From Dehalococcoidia bacterium (GTDB lineage: Bacteria; Chloroflexota; Dehalococcoidia; Plut-88900): a stretch of DNA of 64,000 bases. Both the position numbers and the translations under genes were made by a program. Shown in pieces: positions 5,354-61,578 of the stretch. The notes beneath the pieces are model-generated. The model saw nothing but the letters and a program-made list of their open reading frames with translations, ran no database searches and had not been told where the DNA came from. Each line of letters opens with the position of its first letter. The stretch's first letter is position 1. The stretch spans positions 456,345 through 520,344 of the forward strand of contig OY764147.1 of the NCBI GenBank assembly GCA_963668115.1, in the 5' to 3' direction.

Positions 5354-6319
5354 TCAGGCAGGCAGTTCCCGCTGGACCGTTCGGCGGTCTGGGTTGTCAA
5401 AATAGACACATTCGGATAGAAGGTCGCCGTCCTGCGCGCCGGCTTCTGCGATTTCGATATGCTGACGGGTAAACGACTTGTACGGGAACGCCCCCTTCCC
5501 ATACTGCTCTTCACCGAACTCAAGGGTCTTTGCCCGCTGCAGGTCGTAGTGTGATGCCAGATCAACAAAACGCATTACGTAAGCAGCACGCCTGGGAAGG
5601 GGTCCCTCGCCGAGCATTACGCTTCGATGAATCACGTTTTTGTTGAACAGGAGCGCATCGCCGGGTTGGAAATCGTCTTCGACCTGATGACTTTCGAGTA
5701 TATCCATGGTCGGGTGCGCATTGAAGATTGACCCGCGCATCTTGAAGTAGTCGGTCACGCTCGTACTGATTCCGGCTCGCTCTTTGGCCTTCAAAGTAGA
5801 GACGATGGCCGGATCGAACTGGTAGGCGTAATTGCCTGATAGAACGTTTTCGGATACATAAGCCATCCCGCCCCGCTGCCCCTTCGCATCCACAGGTTGC
5901 AGCGGCACCCATAACGTGCATGCGAATTCTTCCGCGACTTGGAACCCGAAACTCTGTATGCCGACATGCCAGGAAAGTCCCTTGTCGACGTTCTTGCTGA
6001 GTTCAAAGCATATTTCGAAGGTCAGAAAGAGGTCATGGTCGACGATATCCGTGAGAGAACGACGGAAAAAGGGCCTTTCCATCAATTGATATACGTGTTC
6101 CTTTTCAGTCTCAAAGTCATACTTCGATCGAGTAAACCTCGAAGTGACCTGTATGTTGCTGACCACCCCTCGATCCATTTCGGCATCTACACGATTGAGT
6201 AAGAAGTCGACCGCGGCAGGGTTGAAAAACCCTTCCAACTTGATGAAGCCGTCGCGCCGGAATTGCTCTTTGTGCTCCCGGGTGACAGTAAATTCATTAT
6301 CGAAGGGATGGCTGCTCAT
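5354..6319 (-). CDS. Phytanoyl-CoA dioxygenase (PhyH) family Fe(II)/2-oxoglutarate oxygenase
   Basis: The tracked 462-aa ORF has a spurious N-terminal extension. The start was placed at ATG 6317-6319 (MSSHPFDNEF), preceded by GGGAGAAAG. The gene is noticeably lower in GC than its neighbours. Confidence 0.7.
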   Translation of the reverse strand: MSSHPFDNEFTVTREHKEQFRRDGFIKLEGFFNPAAVDFLLNRVDAEMDRGVVSNIQVTSRFTRSKYDFETEKEHVYQLMERPFFRRSLTDIVDHDLFLTFEICFELSKNVDKGLSWHVGIQSFGFQVAEEFACTLWVPLQPVDAKGQRGGMAYVSENVLSGNYAYQFDPAIVSTLKAKERAGISTSVTDYFKMRGSIFNAHPTMDILESHQVEDDFQPGDALLFNKNVIHRSVMLGEGPLPRRAAYVMRFVDLASHYDLQRAKTLEFGEEQYGKGAFPYKSFTRQHIEIAEAGAQDGDLLSECVYFDNPDRRTVQRELPA

Positions 6320-33236: not shown

Positions 33237-34697
33237 ATGGCTGAAGCGAATTTTGTGGACAAGACGATCTGGACGGGGGACAACCTCGATATTTTGAGGG
33301 GGTTGAACTCCGATTGCGTGGACATGATATATCTCGATCCGCCGTTCAATTCCAACCGGAACTACGCTGCTCCGGTCGGGTCACGGGCGGCGGGGGCGGC
33401 GTTCAAGGATACGTGGACGCTGTCCGACCTGGACACGGCATGGATGGGGTTGATTGCGGACGAACAGCCGGCGATGTACAAGGTGATAGAGACGGCGGGG
33501 CTGACGCACGGAAAGGGGATGCAGTCTTACCTGTGCATGATGGCGGTGCGGCTGGTTGAGATGCGGCGGGTGCTGAGGGACACAGGGTCAATATATCTGC
33601 ACTGTGACCCGACGGCATCGCACTATCTGAAGATGCTGATGGACTCGATATTTGGAGCGGGACTATTCAAGGCAGAGATCAATTGGCAAAGGACATCCGC
33701 TCATAGTGACTCGCGCACCTTTGGTAATGTGAGTGACAAGCTTTTGTTTTACAGTGCGACCTCCATAAATGCAGATGCAATTCGTACTCCCTTAAATCCT
33801 GATTACGTAAAAAGTCACTACCGATATACCGATAAACGTGGGCGCTATCAAGACGATAATTTGACTGGCCCTAGCCACGGGTCTCCACCTGGCAGTCCTG
33901 GTACACAACCTTGGCGTGAGTACGATCCGACTTCTATCAACCGCATTTGGTCGGTTCCAAAAACAGGAAGATACGCCACCTGGATTGACCACAACATCAT
34001 TCCGGGATATCTGAAAATGGAGAGCATATTTGATCGCTTAGATGCTTTGGAGCAAGCCGACATGCTCATCCATACTGAAAGAGGTCTCGTACCACGACTT
34101 AAACGGTATTCGCAGGCTAGTCTTGGTCAAGTTCCTAGCAACAACTGGACTGACATTTCCCCAATCAACTCCCAAGCTAAAGAGCGCACAGGCTATCCCA
34201 CCCAAAAGCCCCTTGCCCTGTTAGAGCGGATTATCTCGGCGTCTTCCAATCCGAGCGATGTGGTGCTGGACCCGTTTTGCGGGTGCGCAACAGCCTGTGT
34301 GGCGGCGGAGAAACTGGGAAGGAAATGGGTGGGGATAGACATTTCGCCAAAGGCCGTCGAATTGGTGAATATGCGGTTGCGGAAGTTCATGGGGGACTTG
34401 TTCCACGAACGGTTGGTGACGGCCCGGACAGACATACCGCGTCGGACGGACATATTGGTCCCGATTCCGTATCGGAAGCAGAAGCACGTACTGTTTGGTC
34501 GGCAGGAGGGGAGGTGTGCGGGGTGCAAGTATGAGTTCCCGTTCAGGATTTTAGAGGTGGACCACGTGATACCGAGGAGTAGGGGAGGGTCGGACCACCT
34601 GGACAATTTGCAACTGCTGTGTCCTAACTGCAATCGGATCAAAGGTGATAGGGAGATGTCGTACCTGATGGCTCGGTTGAAGGAGAGGGTGGGGTAG
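33237..34697 (+). CDS. Beta-class N6-adenine/N4-cytosine DNA methyltransferase fused to a C-terminal HNH endonuclease domain
   Basis: Motif IV DPPF near the N-terminus, motif I (VLDPFCGCATACVAAEKLG) near residue 370, then CxxC…HVIPRSRGGSDHLDNLQLLCPNCN HNH. The central part (~33650-34200) is markedly AT-richer. Confidence 0.85.
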   Translation: MAEANFVDKTIWTGDNLDILRGLNSDCVDMIYLDPPFNSNRNYAAPVGSRAAGAAFKDTWTLSDLDTAWMGLIADEQPAMYKVIETAGLTHGKGMQSYLCMMAVRLVEMRRVLRDTGSIYLHCDPTASHYLKMLMDSIFGAGLFKAEINWQRTSAHSDSRTFGNVSDKLLFYSATSINADAIRTPLNPDYVKSHYRYTDKRGRYQDDNLTGPSHGSPPGSPGTQPWREYDPTSINRIWSVPKTGRYATWIDHNIIPGYLKMESIFDRLDALEQADMLIHTERGLVPRLKRYSQASLGQVPSNNWTDISPINSQAKERTGYPTQKPLALLERIISASSNPSDVVLDPFCGCATACVAAEKLGRKWVGIDISPKAVELVNMRLRKFMGDLFHERLVTARTDIPRRTDILVPIPYRKQKHVLFGRQEGRCAGCKYEFPFRILEVDHVIPRSRGGSDHLDNLQLLCPNCNRIKGDREMSYLMARLKERVG

Positions 34698-34707
34698 GGG
34701 GAGGAGG

Positions 34708-35715
34708 TTACGAGCCTGGACCTTCACCTATACGGGCGATAATCCTGTTCTTCAATTCACTACGCAGGTCCTCTGGGGTATCCCAAACGATGTGTGCATA
34801 TTGGCGTGTGTCAAAGTGTAGCTTGTCTATCATGTCATTGCGGCAAGTGTATATGACTGGAATGCCTAGACCATGAGCAAAACCCGCCTCAAAATAAACT
34901 CCACCTCTAGCACCGCCTTCCCCGTGGGTAAAGTCAGCAACCAAAAATCGGGAGCGTCGAATTTCAGCAATTATTTCATCATCAATCTTGTCTATGTCCG
35001 GCTTCTGGTCAATTCTAAGTGGATTATATCCTGCGTCCTTAATGGCTAGTCTGACACCATTGTCAAATGCCTCGTCCATACTGTCATCAAGCCACATGGC
35101 AACAAAGGCTTGAGCAGAATCCAGATTTATCTTTTGCTCTGCAATGCGGCGGTACCCGGATACCGTGAGCCCGCCATGGAACAACCCATTCACAAGCCTC
35201 TGTCCCCGTATCCATCTCATCTCCTCCAAATAGTCGAGCAAATATACGACCTCACCCCATTCAACCGATTCTGACCACGCAAACGCTCCATAGGATTCCT
35301 GCTGAATCTCTACAACAGTTGCTATTGTTGTTGCGTGTCTTTCGATGAATCGAAGGAGTCTATCGGCACGTTGCTCAACTGGTATGGGAGGCTCCTTTCT
35401 AGCTTGTTCTACGAGCTGCGTATCGACAAGTGGCCATCTTACTCCTTGTTCTAGTTGATCAAGAATGATAGTAGTTATCTTCGCTCTTAGTTTCCCGTTA
35501 ACGGTACTGCCTTTGAGATCAAATTCTGCCCCAACAGCAACTGCGTAAGGCCCTCCAACGCGAGGGGAGTCCTCGATAAGTGTCCGACGTCTCCGGAAGT
35601 CGTATGAAACTGTGGCTTGAAAGTCTGGCCATATCTGACATTGGTCTTGCGGCACTTTAAACCTCGTTATTGCTTCTCTCAGAAATCTTGAGCTATCTGC
35701 AGCTTGACCTTTCAA
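34708..35715 (-). CDS. Two-domain protein: unknown N-terminal domain plus C-terminal nucleoside 2-deoxyribosyltransferase/TIR-like (flavodoxin-fold) domain; candidate defence effector
   Basis: The C-terminal ~130 aa (AFVAMWLDD…FLVADFT…GVYFEAGFAHGLGIPVIY) resembles the NDT/TIR-like catalytic-Glu motif. Low GC. Convergent with the MTase-HNH gene. TTG start. Confidence 0.45.
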   Translation of the reverse strand: MKGQAADSSRFLREAITRFKVPQDQCQIWPDFQATVSYDFRRRRTLIEDSPRVGGPYAVAVGAEFDLKGSTVNGKLRAKITTIILDQLEQGVRWPLVDTQLVEQARKEPPIPVEQRADRLLRFIERHATTIATVVEIQQESYGAFAWSESVEWGEVVYLLDYLEEMRWIRGQRLVNGLFHGGLTVSGYRRIAEQKINLDSAQAFVAMWLDDSMDEAFDNGVRLAIKDAGYNPLRIDQKPDIDKIDDEIIAEIRRSRFLVADFTHGEGGARGGVYFEAGFAHGLGIPVIYTCRNDMIDKLHFDTRQYAHIVWDTPEDLRSELKNRIIARIGEGPGS

Positions 35716-35803
35716 ATGGTCACAACCTACATTAGTAAATTATATCCTCGAACTCTTGAGAACCTAAGCGTGGTTACATGTGGGCCAGCCCCGCCCCGTC
35801 ACC

Positions 35804-35880
35804 GGGGATGGATTCCCGACTACTCGGGAATGACGGAGTAACGGGAGTGGGGATGATGGGGGTGGGGGGTGGGGGGAGGT
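35804..35880. repeat. Intergenic repeat copy R4 (module A GGGGATGGATTCCCGACTACTCGGGAATGACGG plus module B GGGGATGATGGGGGTGG)
   Basis: Perfect stem ATTCCCGA/TCGGGAAT. Same orientation as R3, so together they bracket the low-GC cassette. Confidence 0.6.
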
Positions 35881-36039
35881 TGTTGGGGTAGGGGTGAGGG
35901 TTATTCTACGGTGTGTATGTTAGGATACGCGCAGGTTTGAGCCATAGCGGAGGCCAGAGATTACTACGACAACGCAGGCGGTGATTTCGGGGGAGGCGGG
36001 TGAGCCGACCCGGCGGGCTATCTGAAAACCCTCCAACAA

Positions 36040-55655: not shown

Positions 55656-56855
55656 GTGGCCGAAGTGAGAGTGATATTCCTTGAAGAAGTTGAGAATGTC
55701 GCCAAGGCCGGCGACGTAAGAGAAGTCAAGAACGGATACGCCCGAAACTACCTTTTCCCGAAGCAGCTGGCAGTGTTAGCCACGCAGGACCAGATGCGTC
55801 GGGTGGAGGCGTTGAAGCGAGCTGAGGCACTGAGACAGAACAATGCCGAGGCCCGCGCCGCGCTGCTGGGGCCCAAGCTAGAAGGGCTGTCTGTTTCCCT
55901 GGAGGCTCGGAGCGGTCCGACGGGACGGCTTTATGGGTCCATCAATGCGTCGGCGGTGGCGAAGGCGATTTCGGAGGCGGTGAGTGAGGATGTCGGGGCT
56001 CGGGATGTGCTGCTGGAAGAGCCTATCAAGGCTGTCGGGAGTTACGAGGTGACTATGGGGCTTGGTGCGGAGGTTGAGCCGGTGATCAGGGTGGAGGTTG
56101 TCGAGGCTGAGCCGGCCAAGCCGACGACCAAGCGCAAGGCGAGGGGGTCGAAGGTGCGGGAGGTAGTAGCAGAGGCGGAAGCGGTAGTTGAAGAGGCCGC
56201 CGTAACTGAGGCGGTTGAAGAAACCGCTGTCGTCGATGAAGTGGAAGAGGCTCCTGCTTCGGAGGTGGTCGAAGAGGCAGTTGCTGCCGAATCAACAGAA
56301 GCATCCGCTGAGGTAGAGGAGGCTCCCATCGCCGAAGATGAAGCAACGGCCGAGTCTGGGGTTGTTGAAGAGGTCCCTGTTGTTGAGGTAGAAGAAGAGA
56401 CCGTTATTGCGGAAGCGGAAGGAGCGGTTGCCGAAGCGGAGGAGGTGGACGACACAACTGCCGAAGAGGAAGCACCGGAGGCAGTGGCCGTTGCGGAGAC
56501 TCCGGAAGAGGCCCCTGTTGCCGAAGAAGAGTCCGTGGCCGAAGCTGAGGTAGTAGAAGACGCATCTCCTGCTGAAGAAGCAGTTGAGGAAACCGTTGCT
56601 GAAGTAGCGGAGGAGGCCCCGACTGCCGAGGTAGTAGAAGAAGCCGCGGTCAGTGATGAGGTGGAAGAGGAGACCGAAGCAGCGGAGGAAGAGGCCCCTA
56701 TAGAGGAGACTGCCGAGGCGGAGGCAGTGGTGGATGAGGAAACGGGTGAGGAGGAGGCTGCTTCGGCTGAGGGGAAGGCGCAGTCGGCGAGGGAGTCGGC
56801 GGCGGCTGCGGCGGTGCGGCGGGCGAAACGCAGACAGCAACAGGCCGAGCAGTAG
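55656..56855 (+). CDS. rplI: 50S ribosomal protein L9 with a ~250-aa acidic low-complexity C-terminal extension
   Basis: The first ~150 aa are canonical L9 (MAEVRVIFLEEVENVAKAGDVREVKNGYARNYLFP…), followed by an E/A/V-rich repeat region and a basic tail RRAKRRQQQAEQ. GTG start. Confidence 0.8.
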   Translation: MAEVRVIFLEEVENVAKAGDVREVKNGYARNYLFPKQLAVLATQDQMRRVEALKRAEALRQNNAEARAALLGPKLEGLSVSLEARSGPTGRLYGSINASAVAKAISEAVSEDVGARDVLLEEPIKAVGSYEVTMGLGAEVEPVIRVEVVEAEPAKPTTKRKARGSKVREVVAEAEAVVEEAAVTEAVEETAVVDEVEEAPASEVVEEAVAAESTEASAEVEEAPIAEDEATAESGVVEEVPVVEVEEETVIAEAEGAVAEAEEVDDTTAEEEAPEAVAVAETPEEAPVAEEESVAEAEVVEDASPAEEAVEETVAEVAEEAPTAEVVEEAAVSDEVEEETEAAEEEAPIEETAEAEAVVDEETGEEEAASAEGKAQSARESAAAAAVRRAKRRQQQAEQ

Positions 56856-56905: not shown

Positions 56906-58279
56906 ATGTACGCGGAAAAGCTGCCGCCACATGATATAGATGCAGAGGACTCGGTATTGGGGTCGCTACTCATCAACGGAGAAGCGATAACCGAAGTCGC
57001 GCCGGACCTTGACGCCGACGATTTCTACCGGGAGTCGAACCGGTGGTGCTACGAGGCCTGCGTAGACCTCTACAACAGGGGTGTGCCGATAGACCAGGTC
57101 TCTGTTGAGAATGAGCTAAACCGAAGGGAGCGCCTGGCCAATATGGGCGGAGGTGCTTACCTGAGCCACCTCGTCACGGTGGTGCCTACGTCAGTGCACA
57201 TAAAGGCGTATGCAGGCATTGTGCGAAGGTTGGCGACGATGCGGCGCATCATTGAGTCGGCAGGGCAGATATCGAAGATCGGGTATGATGCGGGCCCCGA
57301 CGAGGACGCTGCGCTTAGCCGGGCCGAAGACATCCTGTTCAAACTGAGGAGCGGGCAGAGGTCCCGGGACTTCGTACATATACAGGAGATCCTAGACGAA
57401 TACCTGGAAGAGGGTGGTACGTTCAGTAGAGATGAAGGAGAAGGGCCCCTTTCGGTTGCATTAACGGGGTTTCACAATCTGGACACTCTGCTGGGGGGAC
57501 TGCACCGGTCAGACCTGATCATATTGGCGGCAAGGCCGAGCTTGGGGAAGAGCAGCTTGGCGTTAAACATTACACGGACTGCGGCTTTGGACCAGGGGGC
57601 ACGGGTGGCAGTGTTCAGTCTAGAGATGAACAGAGAGCAAGTGGTGCAGCGCTTGCTTTCCAGCGAGTCGGGAGTGGATACAAGGAATTTTAGACTTGAT
57701 GAATCAGGACTTCAGAAGTTCACGGAGGAAGAATCTGCTAGAGTCGTAGACGCAACCGGTAAGTTGGGTGGTGCGCAAATCTATATAGATGACTCTCCTA
57801 ACCTTAATATAGTCGAGCTTCGGAGCAAGGCAAGAAGGCTTCACCTGGAACAGCCCGTCGACCTGATAATCGTGGACTACATGGGGCTGATGCTTCAACG
57901 GGGAGATAACAATGTCGCGGAGATGAGCGAGATATCGAGGTCACTGAAGCTGTTGGCCAGAGACTTAAATGTTCCTCTTCTGGCGTTGTCGCAGCTGAGT
58001 CGTGCGCCGGAGCTCAGGCAAGACCACAAGCCGATGCTCTCGGACTTGAGGGAAAGCGGTAGCATCGAGCAGGATGCGGACGTGGTGATGTTCATCTACA
58101 AGGCAGACCGTTACTACACGGAGCAGCAATGGGGGAAGCTGTACCCCGACGAGATGTACCCCAAGGGAATAGCGGACATCATCGTCGGGAAGCACCGGAA
58201 CGGGCCTACGGGGACGATACAGTTGCGGTTCGTTGACCATTTGGCGAAGTTCGAGCCGCTGCCGGTGGGCGTGGCTTAG
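56906..58279 (+). CDS. dnaB: Replicative DNA helicase
   Basis: 457 aa with Walker A GKSS and conserved rplI-dnaB synteny. Confidence 0.95.
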   Translation: MYAEKLPPHDIDAEDSVLGSLLINGEAITEVAPDLDADDFYRESNRWCYEACVDLYNRGVPIDQVSVENELNRRERLANMGGGAYLSHLVTVVPTSVHIKAYAGIVRRLATMRRIIESAGQISKIGYDAGPDEDAALSRAEDILFKLRSGQRSRDFVHIQEILDEYLEEGGTFSRDEGEGPLSVALTGFHNLDTLLGGLHRSDLIILAARPSLGKSSLALNITRTAALDQGARVAVFSLEMNREQVVQRLLSSESGVDTRNFRLDESGLQKFTEEESARVVDATGKLGGAQIYIDDSPNLNIVELRSKARRLHLEQPVDLIIVDYMGLMLQRGDNNVAEMSEISRSLKLLARDLNVPLLALSQLSRAPELRQDHKPMLSDLRESGSIEQDADVVMFIYKADRYYTEQQWGKLYPDEMYPKGIADIIVGKHRNGPTGTIQLRFVDHLAKFEPLPVGVA

Positions 58280-58286
58280 GGGCCGG

Positions 58287-59009
58287 ATGTCGGGGTTTGA
58301 GGGTTTCAGGGCGAACTCTCAGAAGACGGCTATTCCCAACGTCTTCTTCACCCAACTGATGCCGCAAATCAAGGACGCGGCGGAGCTTCGGATTGTGCTT
58401 CACGTGTTCTGGGCGGTGCAGCAGAAGAAGGGGTCGCCGCGGTTCGTGACATTCAGGGAACTGCTGGGTGACAAAACCCTGGCCCCGAGCCTGGGCCAGG
58501 ACTTGCCGGAGCGGGTGGAGGCGCTAGAGTCGGGGCTGCGGGGGGCGGTGGAGAGGGGGGTGTTGATTACGACGGAGATGGAGGCCAAAGGGCTTAGAAA
58601 TAGGCTTTACATGCTGAATACGGAGGCAGAGCGTAGGGCTTTGGAGCGGATTGAGGGTCAAGGGGTTGGGATGAGTGGGGTGGCGGTATCCGTCCTTGGG
58701 GCTGAATCAGAGGAACGGCCCGACGCATTTGCGGTGTATGAGAACAACATTGAGCCCTTAAACCCCACTATTGTGGAATGGCTCAAGGAAGCAGTGTCGG
58801 TGTATTCGGAGGAGTGGGTAGTGGAAGCGATAGAAGAGGCGGTGAGAAATTCAGTTCGAAAATGGACGTACATAGAGGCAATCCTCAAGAATAGAAGGCT
58901 GGAAGGCAAGACAGGTGGAATGGCTCGGCGACATTCTGAAACAGGACAGAATACAGACAGGTACTTCAAGGGGAAATACGGGCATCTCGTCCAGCGAAGG
59001 TTTGACTGA
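58287..59009 (+). CDS. DnaD-domain replication initiation/restart protein
   Basis: C-terminal DDBH2-like motif (…VRKWTYIEAILKNRRLEG). Start ATG 58287; the tracked ORF starts inside dnaB. Confidence 0.55.
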   Translation: MSGFEGFRANSQKTAIPNVFFTQLMPQIKDAAELRIVLHVFWAVQQKKGSPRFVTFRELLGDKTLAPSLGQDLPERVEALESGLRGAVERGVLITTEMEAKGLRNRLYMLNTEAERRALERIEGQGVGMSGVAVSVLGAESEERPDAFAVYENNIEPLNPTIVEWLKEAVSVYSEEWVVEAIEEAVRNSVRKWTYIEAILKNRRLEGKTGGMARRHSETGQNTDRYFKGKYGHLVQRRFD

Positions 59010-60324
59010 AGAGACTGCCGGCCATCCCGAGTGCGAGATTTGCGAGGGTGTCGGGTGGGTGATGCCCGACGTGCCGTTCGGCCACCCCGAATTTGGGAAA
59101 GCGACGCCCTGTAGTTGCATGAAGGTGGAATGGGAAGAGCGGATTCCGGAACGGCTGGAGCAGTACAGCAACCTGGGCCCACTGTCTCGCCTTACCTTTG
59201 ACAACGTGATACCGCAGGGTCGGAGCCCGGATGAGGACAACCGAAGGCTTTTTCAGGCCGCGTATGATGCAGCGAAACGGTATGCGTCCGAGCCTCGGGG
59301 GTGGCTGGTTCTTACGGGGAACAGCGGAAGCGGCAAAACTCACCTTGCGGCGGCGGTGGCCAATCACTGCATCGGACTAAGAGTCAGAACATTTTTCATG
59401 GTCGTGCCGGACCTGCTGGACCATCTGAGGGGGACCTTCGGGCCGAATAGTGAGGTCACGTACGATGAGCTGTTCGAGCAGGTGCGCAATGTTCCGCTGC
59501 TAATACTTGATGACCTAGGGTCTCAAACCAGTAGTCCGTGGGCTAGGGAGAAGCTCTTTCAGCTTCTCAATCACCGGTTCAACACTCAACTTCCGACGGT
59601 GATTACGACGAACGTCCCCTTGGAACGGCTGGACGAAAGTCTGCAAAGCCGCCTGACAGACCCGGTGCTTTCGACCGTGATCGAGGTTGAGAGAAGGTCG
59701 TCAGTGCTGAGTTCTATGGACAGCCTGAAGCTCGCACTTCCCGCGAATATGACGTTCGAGTCGTTCAAGCCAGGGGGGAGGGGACTGAAGGGGGAGGTGA
59801 AGCTGAACCTGGAAGGGGCATACAGAGCCGCGATTAACTTTGCGGAGTCGCTGGACGGGTGGATGGTGCTGATGGGGCCGCCGGGTCGAGGGAAGACGCA
59901 TTTAGCGGCGTCGATTGCTCACTGTCACAGGAGTCGGGGGAGGGATGGGCTGTTCATTGTTGTGCCGGACCTGCTGGATTACCTGAGAGCAACATACGCA
60001 TTGGACGCTAGAATCACTTACGACGAGCTATTCAACAAGGTCAGGACGGTGTCGCTGTTGGTGCTGGATGATTATGGAGAGCAGGCGGCAACCCCCTGGG
60101 CCAAGGAAAAGCTGTACCAGATTATCAACTACCGCTACAACAGCAGGCTCCCGACCGTGATTACCACGGCTCTTCCCCTGGATGAGATGGACGAGAGGAT
60201 AAGCTCAAGGCTGGCGGACCCGGGGCTGACGATGTTCTATGCGATCACGGCGCCGGACTACCGGAGTGGGGACGTGAGGGTTGGATGGCCGCGGCGGGGG
60301 GAGGGGATGAGGGGGCGTCGGTAG
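59002..60324 (+). CDS. DnaI/DnaC-like helicase-loader with N-terminal zinc ribbon and two tandem AAA+ (IstB-like) modules
   Basis: CEICEGVGWV…CSC zinc ribbon. Module 1 GNSGSGKTHLAAAVANH…LLILDDLGSQ. Module 2 GPPGRGKTHLAASIAH…LLVLDDYGEQ. The two modules are about 45% identical. Start may be TTG 59002 (8-nt overlap) or further upstream in frame (58915). Confidence 0.65.
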   Translation: MTEETAGHPECEICEGVGWVMPDVPFGHPEFGKATPCSCMKVEWEERIPERLEQYSNLGPLSRLTFDNVIPQGRSPDEDNRRLFQAAYDAAKRYASEPRGWLVLTGNSGSGKTHLAAAVANHCIGLRVRTFFMVVPDLLDHLRGTFGPNSEVTYDELFEQVRNVPLLILDDLGSQTSSPWAREKLFQLLNHRFNTQLPTVITTNVPLERLDESLQSRLTDPVLSTVIEVERRSSVLSSMDSLKLALPANMTFESFKPGGRGLKGEVKLNLEGAYRAAINFAESLDGWMVLMGPPGRGKTHLAASIAHCHRSRGRDGLFIVVPDLLDYLRATYALDARITYDELFNKVRTVSLLVLDDYGEQAATPWAKEKLYQIINYRYNSRLPTVITTALPLDEMDERISSRLADPGLTMFYAITAPDYRSGDVRVGWPRRGEGMRGRR

Positions 60325-60373: not shown

Positions 60374-60691
60374 GTGTCCTGCGTATTTTGTGACATCATC
60401 TCGGGGGTGGAGGGGGCGAATGTGCGGTACGAAGATGAGGAGTTTATTGTCTTCGACAACAAGCTTACATGGGCGCCGGTGATGCTGCTGGTGGTGAGGA
60501 AGCGACACACAGACCAGGAGGAGTACTGGCAGGACATGTCGGAGGCAGGACGGATTGCGGTGGAGATGGGGAAGCGCTACTGTCCCGACGGCTTCCGGCT
60601 GGTGTCGAATTTCGGGGATGACGCCATGCAGAGCCAGGAACATGGGCATCTGCACGTGATCGGGGGGAGGTTTCTGGGGCCTTACGTGTAG
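60374..60691 (+). CDS. HIT-family protein
   Basis: Histidine triad HGHLHVIGG. 105 aa. Confidence 0.85.
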   Translation: MSCVFCDIISGVEGANVRYEDEEFIVFDNKLTWAPVMLLVVRKRHTDQEEYWQDMSEAGRIAVEMGKRYCPDGFRLVSNFGDDAMQSQEHGHLHVIGGRFLGPYV

Positions 60692-60705: not shown

Positions 60706-61578
60706 CTAGCTCTCTGAGCCGCGTTGCTGGCGGTGACGCAGATATTCTTCCAGGCTCTTGATGATTTCGTCGGAGCGAAGGGGCTCCTCGTCCTCCCGGG
60801 CCCCCAGGTTGCTTTCGAGCTGACGTACGTAGCGCTTCAATTTTGGGTTCTGCTCCAAAGCCTGCTCCACCTGTTTGTCCAGTCGGTCTCCGCGCCGGAC
60901 GAGGTCACGGATGTCCAACTCCAGGTCCAGAATCGGGAGGAGACGACGCAGAACAGCGCGCCATGCCTTGGGGTTGGCGGTGGGGAGGTAGTGGGGGGTG
61001 CCGGTCCAGAGGCTGATGCTGGGTATGCCCAGTTCTGCGCAGGCGTGCTCGAGGACGGCGTGGATGGAGGTTGGGCCTTCGTAGTCGGTGAACTGGAGGT
61101 CGTAGACGGCGAGGTCGTCACGGGCGCCACTGTCATTTACGGCGGCGGAGACGATGGGTTCCCGGGTGTGGGGTGTGGAGTCGTAGAAGCTGCCGAGGAG
61201 GATCAGCTCATCGGGGTCATGGTCCTGGAAGGCGGCGAAGAAGTCATCGGTGAAGCTGCGCCACTTGAGTTGGGGTTCGGTGCCCAAGAAGAGGATTAAA
61301 TCATGCTCGCCGTACAGGTTTTCCCAGTAATAGAACTCGTTAGTGACGAAATCCAGGCTCTTGATGACGCCCTCGGATATCTTGCCGTAGGGTCGGGTGT
61401 TGGTGAAGTCGTAGAAGGGGTCGGGGTCCAGTTCGGCGAACTTGGTTGGGTTCAGCTTGCTTTTCAGGTAGGACACCGCTCCCGAGGATACCTCACCGGC
61501 GTTGGCCCAACCCGAGAACCCGGCCAGCACCTTGGGCTTCCTGAGTTCGGGGGTTTCCAGCATGATGAGGTTGCTCAT
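60706..61578 (-). CDS. PAC2-family (proteasome assembly chaperone-like) protein
   Basis: 290-aa ORF with a PAC2-type ATP-grasp-like layout (…VLAGFSGWANAGEV…). Confidence 0.6.
   Translation of the reverse strand: MSNLIMLETPELRKPKVLAGFSGWANAGEVSSGAVSYLKSKLNPTKFAELDPDPFYDFTNTRPYGKISEGVIKSLDFVTNEFYYWENLYGEHDLILFLGTEPQLKWRSFTDDFFAAFQDHDPDELILLGSFYDSTPHTREPIVSAAVNDSGARDDLAVYDLQFTDYEGPTSIHAVLEHACAELGIPSISLWTGTPHYLPTANPKAWRAVLRRLLPILDLELDIRDLVRRGDRLDKQVEQALEQNPKLKRYVRQLESNLGAREDEEPLRSDEIIKSLEEYLRHRQQRGSES

Follow-up and report, generated by a model that had tools for sequence, protein, structure and literature searches.

Bacterial helicase loading is known from loaders with one AAA+ module that act as six identical copies, such as E. 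coli DnaC and Bacillus DnaI. In these one-module systems, the roles of individual ATP sites can be separated only by mixing mutants. Mutation of any of five ATPase residues of E. coli DnaC abolishes ATPase activity, and the sensor I exchange N203A has the same effect (bioRxiv 10.1101/2020.10.21.345918). Brezellec et al. listed a single domesticated dna[CI] gene, but no dciA, for each Chloroflexi genome surveyed and proposed a phage origin of dna[CI] genes; a tandem architecture is mentioned neither in the text nor in the supplements (PMC5109545). Our literature searches retrieved no description of a tandem or duplicated AAA+ helicase loader, or of DnaD in Chloroflexi. Here, we describe a locus from a Dehalococcoidia bacterium (Chloroflexota), located on a stretch of 64,000 nucleotides (assembly GCA_963668115.1, contig OY764147.1, positions 456,345 to 520,344 of the forward strand), hereafter called the window. 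It comprises dnaB, a DnaD-like gene, and a gene for a DnaC/DnaI-like loader with two AAA+ modules in one chain. A dna[CI] loader in Chloroflexi is already known, whereas its tandem architecture is apparently undescribed.

The gene order dnaB, DnaD-like gene, and DnaC/DnaI-like loader, which had been proposed in an initial annotation made from the DNA letters, was recovered by model searches. DnaB passed TIGR00665 (cutoff 385 bits), the DnaD-like protein passed PF07261 and TIGR01446 (cutoffs 22 and 24.95 bits), and the loader contained two IstB/DnaC-like stretches. The gene very probably encodes a chromosomal helicase loader with a conserved tandem architecture. The best overall explanation, to which we assign a probability of about 0.6, is a helicase-loading operon of Dehalococcoidia and Anaerolineae whose loader is a covalent pseudo-dimer.

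Architecture and family placement of the loader

Both modules of the loader carry the motifs GxxGxGKT and hhhhDD, as expected for the two complete Walker A/B modules in tandem that had been predicted initially. The modules are 49% identical over 165 residues (E 4e-58), which retains the predicted strong similarity and replaces the earlier figure of ~45%. We counted conserved residues in 211 homologs for each module (Table 1). E. coli DnaC residues, combined with an alignment to 6QEL, served as the reference: Walker A K112, Walker B E170, sensor I N203, arginine coupler R216, arginine finger R220, sensor II R237, and the tetrad contacting single-stranded DNA (ssDNA), K143/F146/S177/Y179. Degeneration of the Walker motifs in the second module, considered beforehand as a possible objection, was not seen: Walker A, Walker B, and the arginine finger were all kept on careful alignment. 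The original phmmer alignment placed the SRL arginine on DnaC R216. We take this placement to be four residues off, since ER-x-x-SRL, the family consensus, agrees with the two-arginine pattern of box VII. From the corrected alignment, we infer that the SRL arginine is the arginine-finger equivalent.

Table 1. Conserved positions in modules 1 and 2 of the loader (residue in the window, count among homologs)
Position	Module 1	Module 2
Walker A Lys	present, 209/211	present, 204/211
Walker B Asp	present, 211/211	present, 201/211
Box VII SRL Arg	R246, 199/211	R432, 201/211
ssDNA tetrad, basic residue	R172, R 206/211	R358, R 195/211
ssDNA tetrad, aromatic residue	F175, F/Y 199/211	Y361, F/Y 190/211
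ssDNA tetrad, Ser/Thr	S207, S/T 208/211	T393, S/T 177/211
ssDNA tetrad, Trp	W209, W 209/211	W395, W 200/211
Sensor I Asn	N233, 122/211	A419, Asn 21/211
Sensor-II-like PDYR Arg	RR left at aa 260-261, motif in a subset only	R450, 192/211
Coupler Arg (-4 from finger)	S242, R 145/211	R428, R 129/211

Module 2 has mostly lost the sensor I asparagine, on which hydrolysis by E. coli DnaC depends. Therefore, module 2 probably binds ATP with only poor turnover. The decay of sensor I in module 2 is complementary to that of sensor II after module 1, which suggests that the two sites are unequal and specialised.

The N-terminal domain contains a Cys4 (CxxC...CxC) motif, in which C66 and C68 are invariant and C40 and C43 occur in at least 90% of the homolog sequences. 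The alignments of NCBIfam PRK06835 and PRK06921 reach into this domain. Within the N-terminal 100 residues, neither DnaI_N nor any other Pfam family was found, and DnaI_N was absent even at E <=10. Of the DnaI-like zinc ribbon described in the initial annotation, the conserved Cys4 motif stands, while the likeness to DnaI is a resemblance only. The domain search that had been suggested gave a similarly divided result, with IstB_IS21 matched twice, the DnaD domain above cutoff, and DnaI_N unmatched. The Cys4 domain is presumed to bind the helicase.

The AlphaFold2 (AF2) model of the loader was built on an 80-sequence alignment and had a predicted local distance difference test (pLDDT) score of 80.4. 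It contained two confident alpha/beta AAA+ cores and a moderately confident Cys4 region; residues 1-37 were disordered except for a helix at 4-10. The linker between the modules is conserved among homologs, and the region around it was modelled with a pLDDT of 72-89 (aa 261-290) and helices at 263-268 and 274-277. In Foldseek searches, a single module matched E. coli DnaC (6QEM_G) with a root-mean-square deviation (rmsd) of 2.3 Å over 183 columns at 26% identity, and single modules also superposed on DnaI (2W58, 5HE8) and IstB. The full-length search was topped by p97 and NSF (rmsd 11-21 Å, template modelling score ~0.3). We rejected these matches, which reflect the module count only. The loader modules are DnaC-like and lidless, and nothing pointed to the stacked rings of type II proteins.

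Curated models were applied to the whole loader and to each module separately. The DnaC model NF005931 (cutoff 357 bits) gave 131 bits for the whole protein, 67 bits for module 1, and 68 bits for module 2. The corresponding scores were 125, 78, and 50 bits with DnaI NF006505 (cutoff 228), 142, 77, and 69 bits with IstB NF038214 (IS21_help_AAA, cutoff 200), and 219, 119, and 104 bits with PRK08116 NF005992 (cutoff 189). The whole loader exceeds the PRK08116 cutoff because the two module scores add up. The best solved relatives by sequence were Aquifex DnaC (3ECC), Geobacillus DnaI (2W58), E. coli DnaC (6QEL), and the DnaI proteins of B. subtilis and S. aureus, with E values of ~1e-15 for 3ECC, 2W58, 6QEL, and 4M4W. 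PHROG 50 (DnaC-like helicase loader) was matched at 3e-91. Judged by these comparisons, the loader is a member of the DnaC/DnaI/IstB branch of initiator-clade AAA+ proteins, and none of the curated models fits it. The features of the locus are compiled in Table 2.

Table 2. Features of the loader locus (positions in the window)
Feature	Position	Strand	Remarks
rplI (ribosomal protein L9)	55656-56855	+	~250-aa acidic C-terminal extension; Pfam L9_N, L9_C at aa 5-150
dnaB (replicative DNA helicase)	56906-58279	+	457 aa; TIGR00665 470 bits; Pfam DnaB, DnaB_C
DnaD-like gene	58287-59009	+	240 aa; PF07261, TIGR01446 above cutoff; aa 1-125 winged-helix-like N-domain (predicted), aa 126-144 disordered linker, aa 147-206 helical DnaD domain; tail aa 207-240 disordered, basic/aromatic (RYFKGKYGHLVQRRFD)
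Tandem-AAA+ helicase loader	58915-60324	+	469 aa; two IstB_IS21 stretches; full-length homologs 52-95% identity
Out-of-frame overlap (dual-coding)	58915-59009	+	95 nt; DnaD-like tail/loader N-terminus
N-terminal peptide of loader	58915-58944	+	MEWLGDILKQ, predicted short helix; family motif ME-x-(L/I)-(G/S)-(D/E)-I-L-(K/R)
Cys4 zinc-ribbon-like N-domain	59026-59124	+	aa 38-70; C40, C43, C66, C68
AAA+ module 1	59191-59703	+	aa 93-263; Walker A G135-T142; Walker B D199-D200; initiator-specific motif R172/F175; S207/W209; sensor I N233; S242 at coupler position; box VII R246
Inter-module linker	59704-59748	+	aa 264-278; partly helical, ordered (predicted)
AAA+ module 2	59749-60270	+	aa 279-452; Walker A G321-T328; Walker B D385-D386; R358/Y361; T393/W395; sensor I position A419 (Asn lost); coupler R428; box VII R432; sensor-II-like PDYR R450
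C-terminal tail and stop codon	60271-60324	+	aa 453-469; disordered, basic; pLDDT <50; basic tails in homologs
HIT-family gene	60374-60691	+	after loader
PAC2-family gene	60706-61578	-	after HIT-family gene

Distribution and age of the duplication

A word-indexed search retrieved more than 100 full-length homologs of 415-490 aa from metagenome-assembled genomes of Dehalococcoidia/Chloroflexota, at the identities given in Table 2; they are named only 'ATP-binding protein' or 'DnaC'. Exhaustive HMMER searches of 50%-identity representatives yielded 678 matches at E <1e-30, and more than 100 clusters, some with as little as 35% identity, span both modules. In a scan of species-representative genomes, at least 563 relatives were confirmed among the 600 pattern matches listed. 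The best 80 of them belong to Dehalococcoidia (including Dehalogenimonas, Dehalococcoidaceae, and Tepidiformaceae) and Anaerolineae (including Anaerolinea thermophila, Ardenticatenaceae, Caldilineaceae, and Promineifilaceae). A cultured example of the tandem loader is ARMA_1552 of Ardenticatena maritima.

The survey of orthologs recovered the same duplication, with both modules in one open reading frame in more than 200 protein clusters, two modules in 237 of 270 collected homologs, and exactly two in all 85 loaders from the examined loci; the loci used for synteny and module counts were the best matches to a two-module query, which biases the counts towards tandem forms. The DnaD-like gene lies directly upstream of the loader gene in ~80 of 84 loci, and dnaB lies upstream of that in ~74 of 84. 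In the window, the loader gene is likewise on the same strand as dnaB, two genes downstream. The tandem arrangement is the usual state in Dehalococcoidia and Anaerolineae. The initial annotation had called the arrangement unusual, a view that is not borne out by this distribution or by the earlier listing of dna[CI] in Chloroflexi (PMC5109545).

Loaders with other module numbers occur in the same gene neighbourhood. Ktedonobacterales (P0235; L085 3947-5557 and L086 5001-6611) have a one-module loader of 536 aa, in which ~300 disordered residues rich in P/A/Q separate the N-terminal peptide MERMGDIL from the Cys4 domain. The protein P0121 (827 aa; L087 5001-7484, on a 64-kb Logan contig of DRR538840) contains four modules. 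These are only 37-63% identical to one another, which rules out a repeat-assembly error. The L087 contig is Anaerolineae-like, and its DnaD-like gene is nearest those of Anaerolineae. In the rare proteins P0196 and P0222 (281 and 278 aa), the N-terminal peptide and the Cys4 domain are joined to a single module that resembles module 2 and ends in PDYR. Both have the appearance of proteins from which recombination between the repeats removed module 1.

Neighbour-joining trees, scoring with own-kind hidden Markov models, and quartet analyses showed that within each class module 1 groups with module 1 and module 2 with module 2. By these analyses, the duplication is older than the radiation within each class. 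Across classes, the split between the two modules was unsupported (5.5% bootstrap). In quartets of distant pairs (<40% identity) from 203 tandem homologs, the modules of the same protein were nearest to each other in 58% of the cases, and the orthologous pairing was found in 23%. This result may point to gene conversion at an early stage, to co-evolution, or to repeated duplication. The data do not separate a single ancient duplication, followed early on by gene conversion or co-evolution, from repeated duplications. The phylogeny of the two AAA+ halves, proposed initially as a check, dates the duplication before the within-class radiation and leaves one and several duplications unseparated.

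Candidate mode of action and alternatives

The residues for ATP binding, the arginine finger, and the ssDNA contacts are kept in both modules. The modules are therefore most likely two protomer-equivalents of a DnaC-type spiral, and the conserved motifs fit the initial suggestion that one polypeptide may mimic a loader dimer. Each module would take the place of one protomer in a spiral by which the DnaB ring is opened or assembled on ssDNA. Within a chain, the two modules would lie side by side, with one ATP site inside the chain and one between chains. We slightly favour such a side-by-side pseudo-dimer within one spiral, whereas three loader chains per DnaB hexamer are conceivable but rather doubtful.

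A more far-reaching version, which we put forward only tentatively and consider unlikely in its entirety, is that Chloroflexota use covalent multi-module loaders in which the stoichiometry of loader to helicase is determined by the number of modules (1, 2, or 4). Three two-module chains would build a six-module spiral on the DnaB hexamer, in which hydrolytic sites (module 1, sensor I kept) alternate with binding-only sites (module 2, sensor I lost). Docking of the loader to DnaB, DnaD, or DnaA would fall to the separate, conserved peptide at its N-terminus. If true, this arrangement would give bacteria a natural equivalent of the specialised subunits found in ORC/Cdc6 and clamp loaders.

Several observations weigh against the pseudo-dimer as the loader of this operon. 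The predicted template modelling score (pTM) of the AF2 model was only 0.53. No similarity of the Cys4 domain to DnaI_N was detected, so that helicase binding via this domain is an assumption, and all curated DnaC, DnaI, and IstB models score each module on its own below their cutoffs. Moreover, the module number varies (1, 2, 4) within the same synteny, and four modules do not divide a ring of six. Such variation fits a flexible filament, or some other stoichiometry, better than a fixed 3:6 complex. In the filament explanation, the loader binds DnaB 1:1 via its N-domain, so that six chains per hexamer bring 12 modules in approximately two turns, and the extra module lengthens a DnaC/DnaA-like helical filament on ssDNA instead of replacing a neighbouring chain. 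Besides the plastic number of modules per N-domain, the retention of ssDNA-contact residues in all modules speaks for it, and initiator-clade AAA+ proteins do form open helical filaments. The spiral of E. coli DnaC, however, is capped at six by the geometry of the DnaB ring, and the short linker, predicted to be ordered, is compatible with filament and pseudo-dimer alike. No result of this analysis counts directly against the filament. On balance, we regard it as improbable, albeit as the strongest competitor of the pseudo-dimer. A further alternative sees module 2 as a degenerate pseudo-ATPase with a scaffolding or regulatory role and module 1 as the sole loader ATPase. It draws on the rarity of the sensor I asparagine in module 2 and on the inactive N203A variant of E. 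coli DnaC. Module 2, however, keeps the Walker A lysine, Walker B, the box VII arginine, the sensor-II-like arginine, and the ssDNA tetrad, and its conservation is far above that of a decaying domain, which makes this alternative quite improbable.

The remaining two explanations concern the gene itself. The protein might belong to a mobile element, as an IS21 IstB-type helper or part of a prophage replication module, instead of being the cell's own loader. The Pfam name IstB_IS21 points in this direction, and the closest phage relatives are pairs of DnaD-like and DnaC-like genes. Yet the loader gene sits between dnaB and housekeeping genes in a synteny conserved across two classes, no IstA transposase or phage genes flank it, its IS21_help_AAA score of 142 bits stays below the cutoff, and no tandem form was found among phage records. 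Gene context and model cutoffs led us to reject an IS21 or prophage origin of the window copy, for which we see hardly any chance. Even less credible, to the point of being negligible, is an artefact in which two loader genes were fused by a sequencing or assembly error or a repeat was collapsed or duplicated. Nothing was found in its favour, apart from the existence of the rare one-module relatives P0196 and P0222. The uninterrupted open reading frame is found again, at 35-95% identity, in hundreds of independent assemblies that stem from several sources, and modules sharing just 49% identity do not yield confusable reads. The ortholog survey thus disposed of the erroneous fusion that had been named as a possible refutation, since orthologs keep both modules in one open reading frame.

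As a system, linked but non-identical modules would allow alternate ATP sites to be mutated independently. The stoichiometry of loader to DnaB (3:6 or 6:6) bears on how the loader spiral matches the helicase ring. Here, one phylum is seen to have both expanded and contracted the number of modules (1, 2, 4) of an essential replication factor. Furthermore, the pairing of DnaD with an AAA+ loader, regarded as typical of Firmicutes and phages, is fixed in the dnaB operon of another phylum.

The DnaD-like gene, the operon, and comparison with known systems

The loader most likely starts with GTG 58915 and not with TTG 59002, because homologs, many of them initiated by ATG, begin 29 codons earlier with a conserved peptide. 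A GGAAGG sequence lies ~10 nt upstream of GTG 58915. The overlap of 8 nt between the DnaD-like and loader genes that had been described initially holds only for TTG 59002, which would yield a protein of 440 aa; GTG 58915 gives 95 nt. An overlap of 80-95 nt is the mode in related loci (48 of 78) and is conserved across classes. In the related locus L003, the overlap was found at 6001-6080, and most of the loci L005-L084 have it as well. The N-terminal peptide is kept in Dehalococcoidia, Anaerolineae, and Ktedonobacterales. Since Ktedonobacterales retain it despite an overlap of only 29 nt, selection on the peptide acts in the loader frame. At a later point in the overlap, the loader motif NT(D/P)T(W/S)S results when the conserved DnaD tail KY(G/A)(H/D)(M/F)(V/I) is read in the +1 frame, so that selection would be needed on just one of these two motifs. 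The long conserved overlap probably couples translation of the DnaD-like protein and the loader.

The DnaD domain of the upstream gene product was detected at aa 148-202 (31.2 bits with PF07261, 33 bits with TIGR01446), and the protein matched phrog_186 (DnaD-like helicase loader) at 2.5e-12. Its N-domain had no Pfam match. Matches of this domain to pentatricopeptide repeats in a sequence search of the PDB were dismissed as spurious, the product of many summed sub-threshold stretches. The AF2 model (pLDDT 75.8) showed helices and a beta hairpin at 93-110 in the N-domain (pLDDT 84-95). In the Foldseek search of the PDB, the sole significant match was the full-length DnaD model 9a5c_B (E 2e-5, rmsd 24 Å), and the remaining matches were generic winged-helix (winged helix-turn-helix) proteins. 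The N-terminus M-x-x-F-x-G-F is conserved. In the window protein, R replaces the final W of the YxxxIxxxW motif, which is kept in the family consensus (YIEAILxRW). Judged by its domains and the order of the genes, the DnaD-like protein probably has the role of Firmicutes DnaD, connecting the origin/DnaA complex with the complex of loader and helicase.

The + strand at 55.6-60.7 kb carries five genes: rplI, dnaB, the DnaD-like gene, the loader gene, and a HIT-family gene. A gap of 50 nt separates rplI from dnaB, and one of 7 nt separates dnaB from the DnaD-like gene. In Dehalococcoidia loci, rplI lies upstream of dnaB as the first gene of a conserved rplI-dnaB cluster. Promoters and terminators were called as consensus matches only. 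A promoter-like site was found upstream of rplI. The scanned region contained three terminator-like matches, which did not exceed the level of shuffled sequence, and none of them lay between dnaB and the loader end.

The L9 protein of the window has 399 aa, with a normal L9 sequence in the first ~150 residues followed by a low-complexity acidic tail of ~250 aa rich in E/A/V/T. In related loci, L9 measures 386 aa (L001), 442 aa (L002), and just 165 aa (L003). DnaB of the window is free of inteins. The DnaB of L086 (201-4115; 1304 aa) has two intein/LAGLIDADG insertions, and that of L087 (2433-4259; 608 aa) has one intein insertion. The HIT and PAC2 neighbours recur in L001, L002, and L005, and the HIT-family gene also in several other Dehalococcoidia loci. 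Scans for tRNA genes and Rfam families found none in the 64-kb window. The GC skew of the + strand was positive in all 2-kb bins of the window (+0.06 to +0.29) despite long open reading frames on both strands, and the GC content fell to 0.513 at 34001-36000, compared with ~0.60 elsewhere.

Among known systems, type II AAA+ proteins (p97/Cdc48, NSF) share with the loader the presence of two AAA+ modules per chain. They differ in belonging to the classic clade, with lid domains and two stacked rings, and are only ~15% identical to the loader. IstB, the helper ATPase of IS21 (5BQ5, 8Q3W), belongs to the same Pfam family and AAA+ branch and assembles on DNA. IstB works with the partner IstA, whereas the loader has no IstA, is encoded in a chromosomal dnaB context, and scores below the IS21_help_AAA cutoff.

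The DnaD-like protein shares PF07261, a predicted winged-helix-like N-domain with a beta hairpin, and the disordered basic tail with Firmicutes DnaD and phage replication modules. In Bacillus phages, a DnaD-like gene lies directly upstream of an AAA+ loader gene, as in the window; these closest phage relatives encode one-module DnaC-like proteins with 30% identity to the loader. This relationship fits the phage origin proposed for dna[CI] genes (PMC5109545), and the DnaD-like/loader pair was possibly acquired together. Unlike in the Firmicutes and phage modules, the pair sits within the dnaB operon and overlaps by 80-95 nt. In Firmicutes, DnaD acts together with the co-loader DnaB and DnaI, whereas this cluster lacks a co-loader of the B. 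subtilis DnaB type.

The closest likeness is to DnaC (E. coli, Aquifex) and DnaI (Bacillus, Geobacillus, Staphylococcus). The loader shares with them the lidless initiator-clade AAA+ fold, Walker A and B, the box VII pattern ER-x-x-SR, equivalents of the ssDNA tetrad, a domain N-terminal to the ATPase, and the linkage of the gene to dnaB. It differs from DnaI in a Cys4 domain that is not recognisable as DnaI_N, and it scores under the curated DnaC and DnaI cutoffs. Unlike both proteins, the loader has an extra conserved N-terminal peptide, a decayed sensor I in module 2, and a decayed sensor II after module 1. DnaC and DnaI carry one AAA+ module per chain, whereas the loader carries two.

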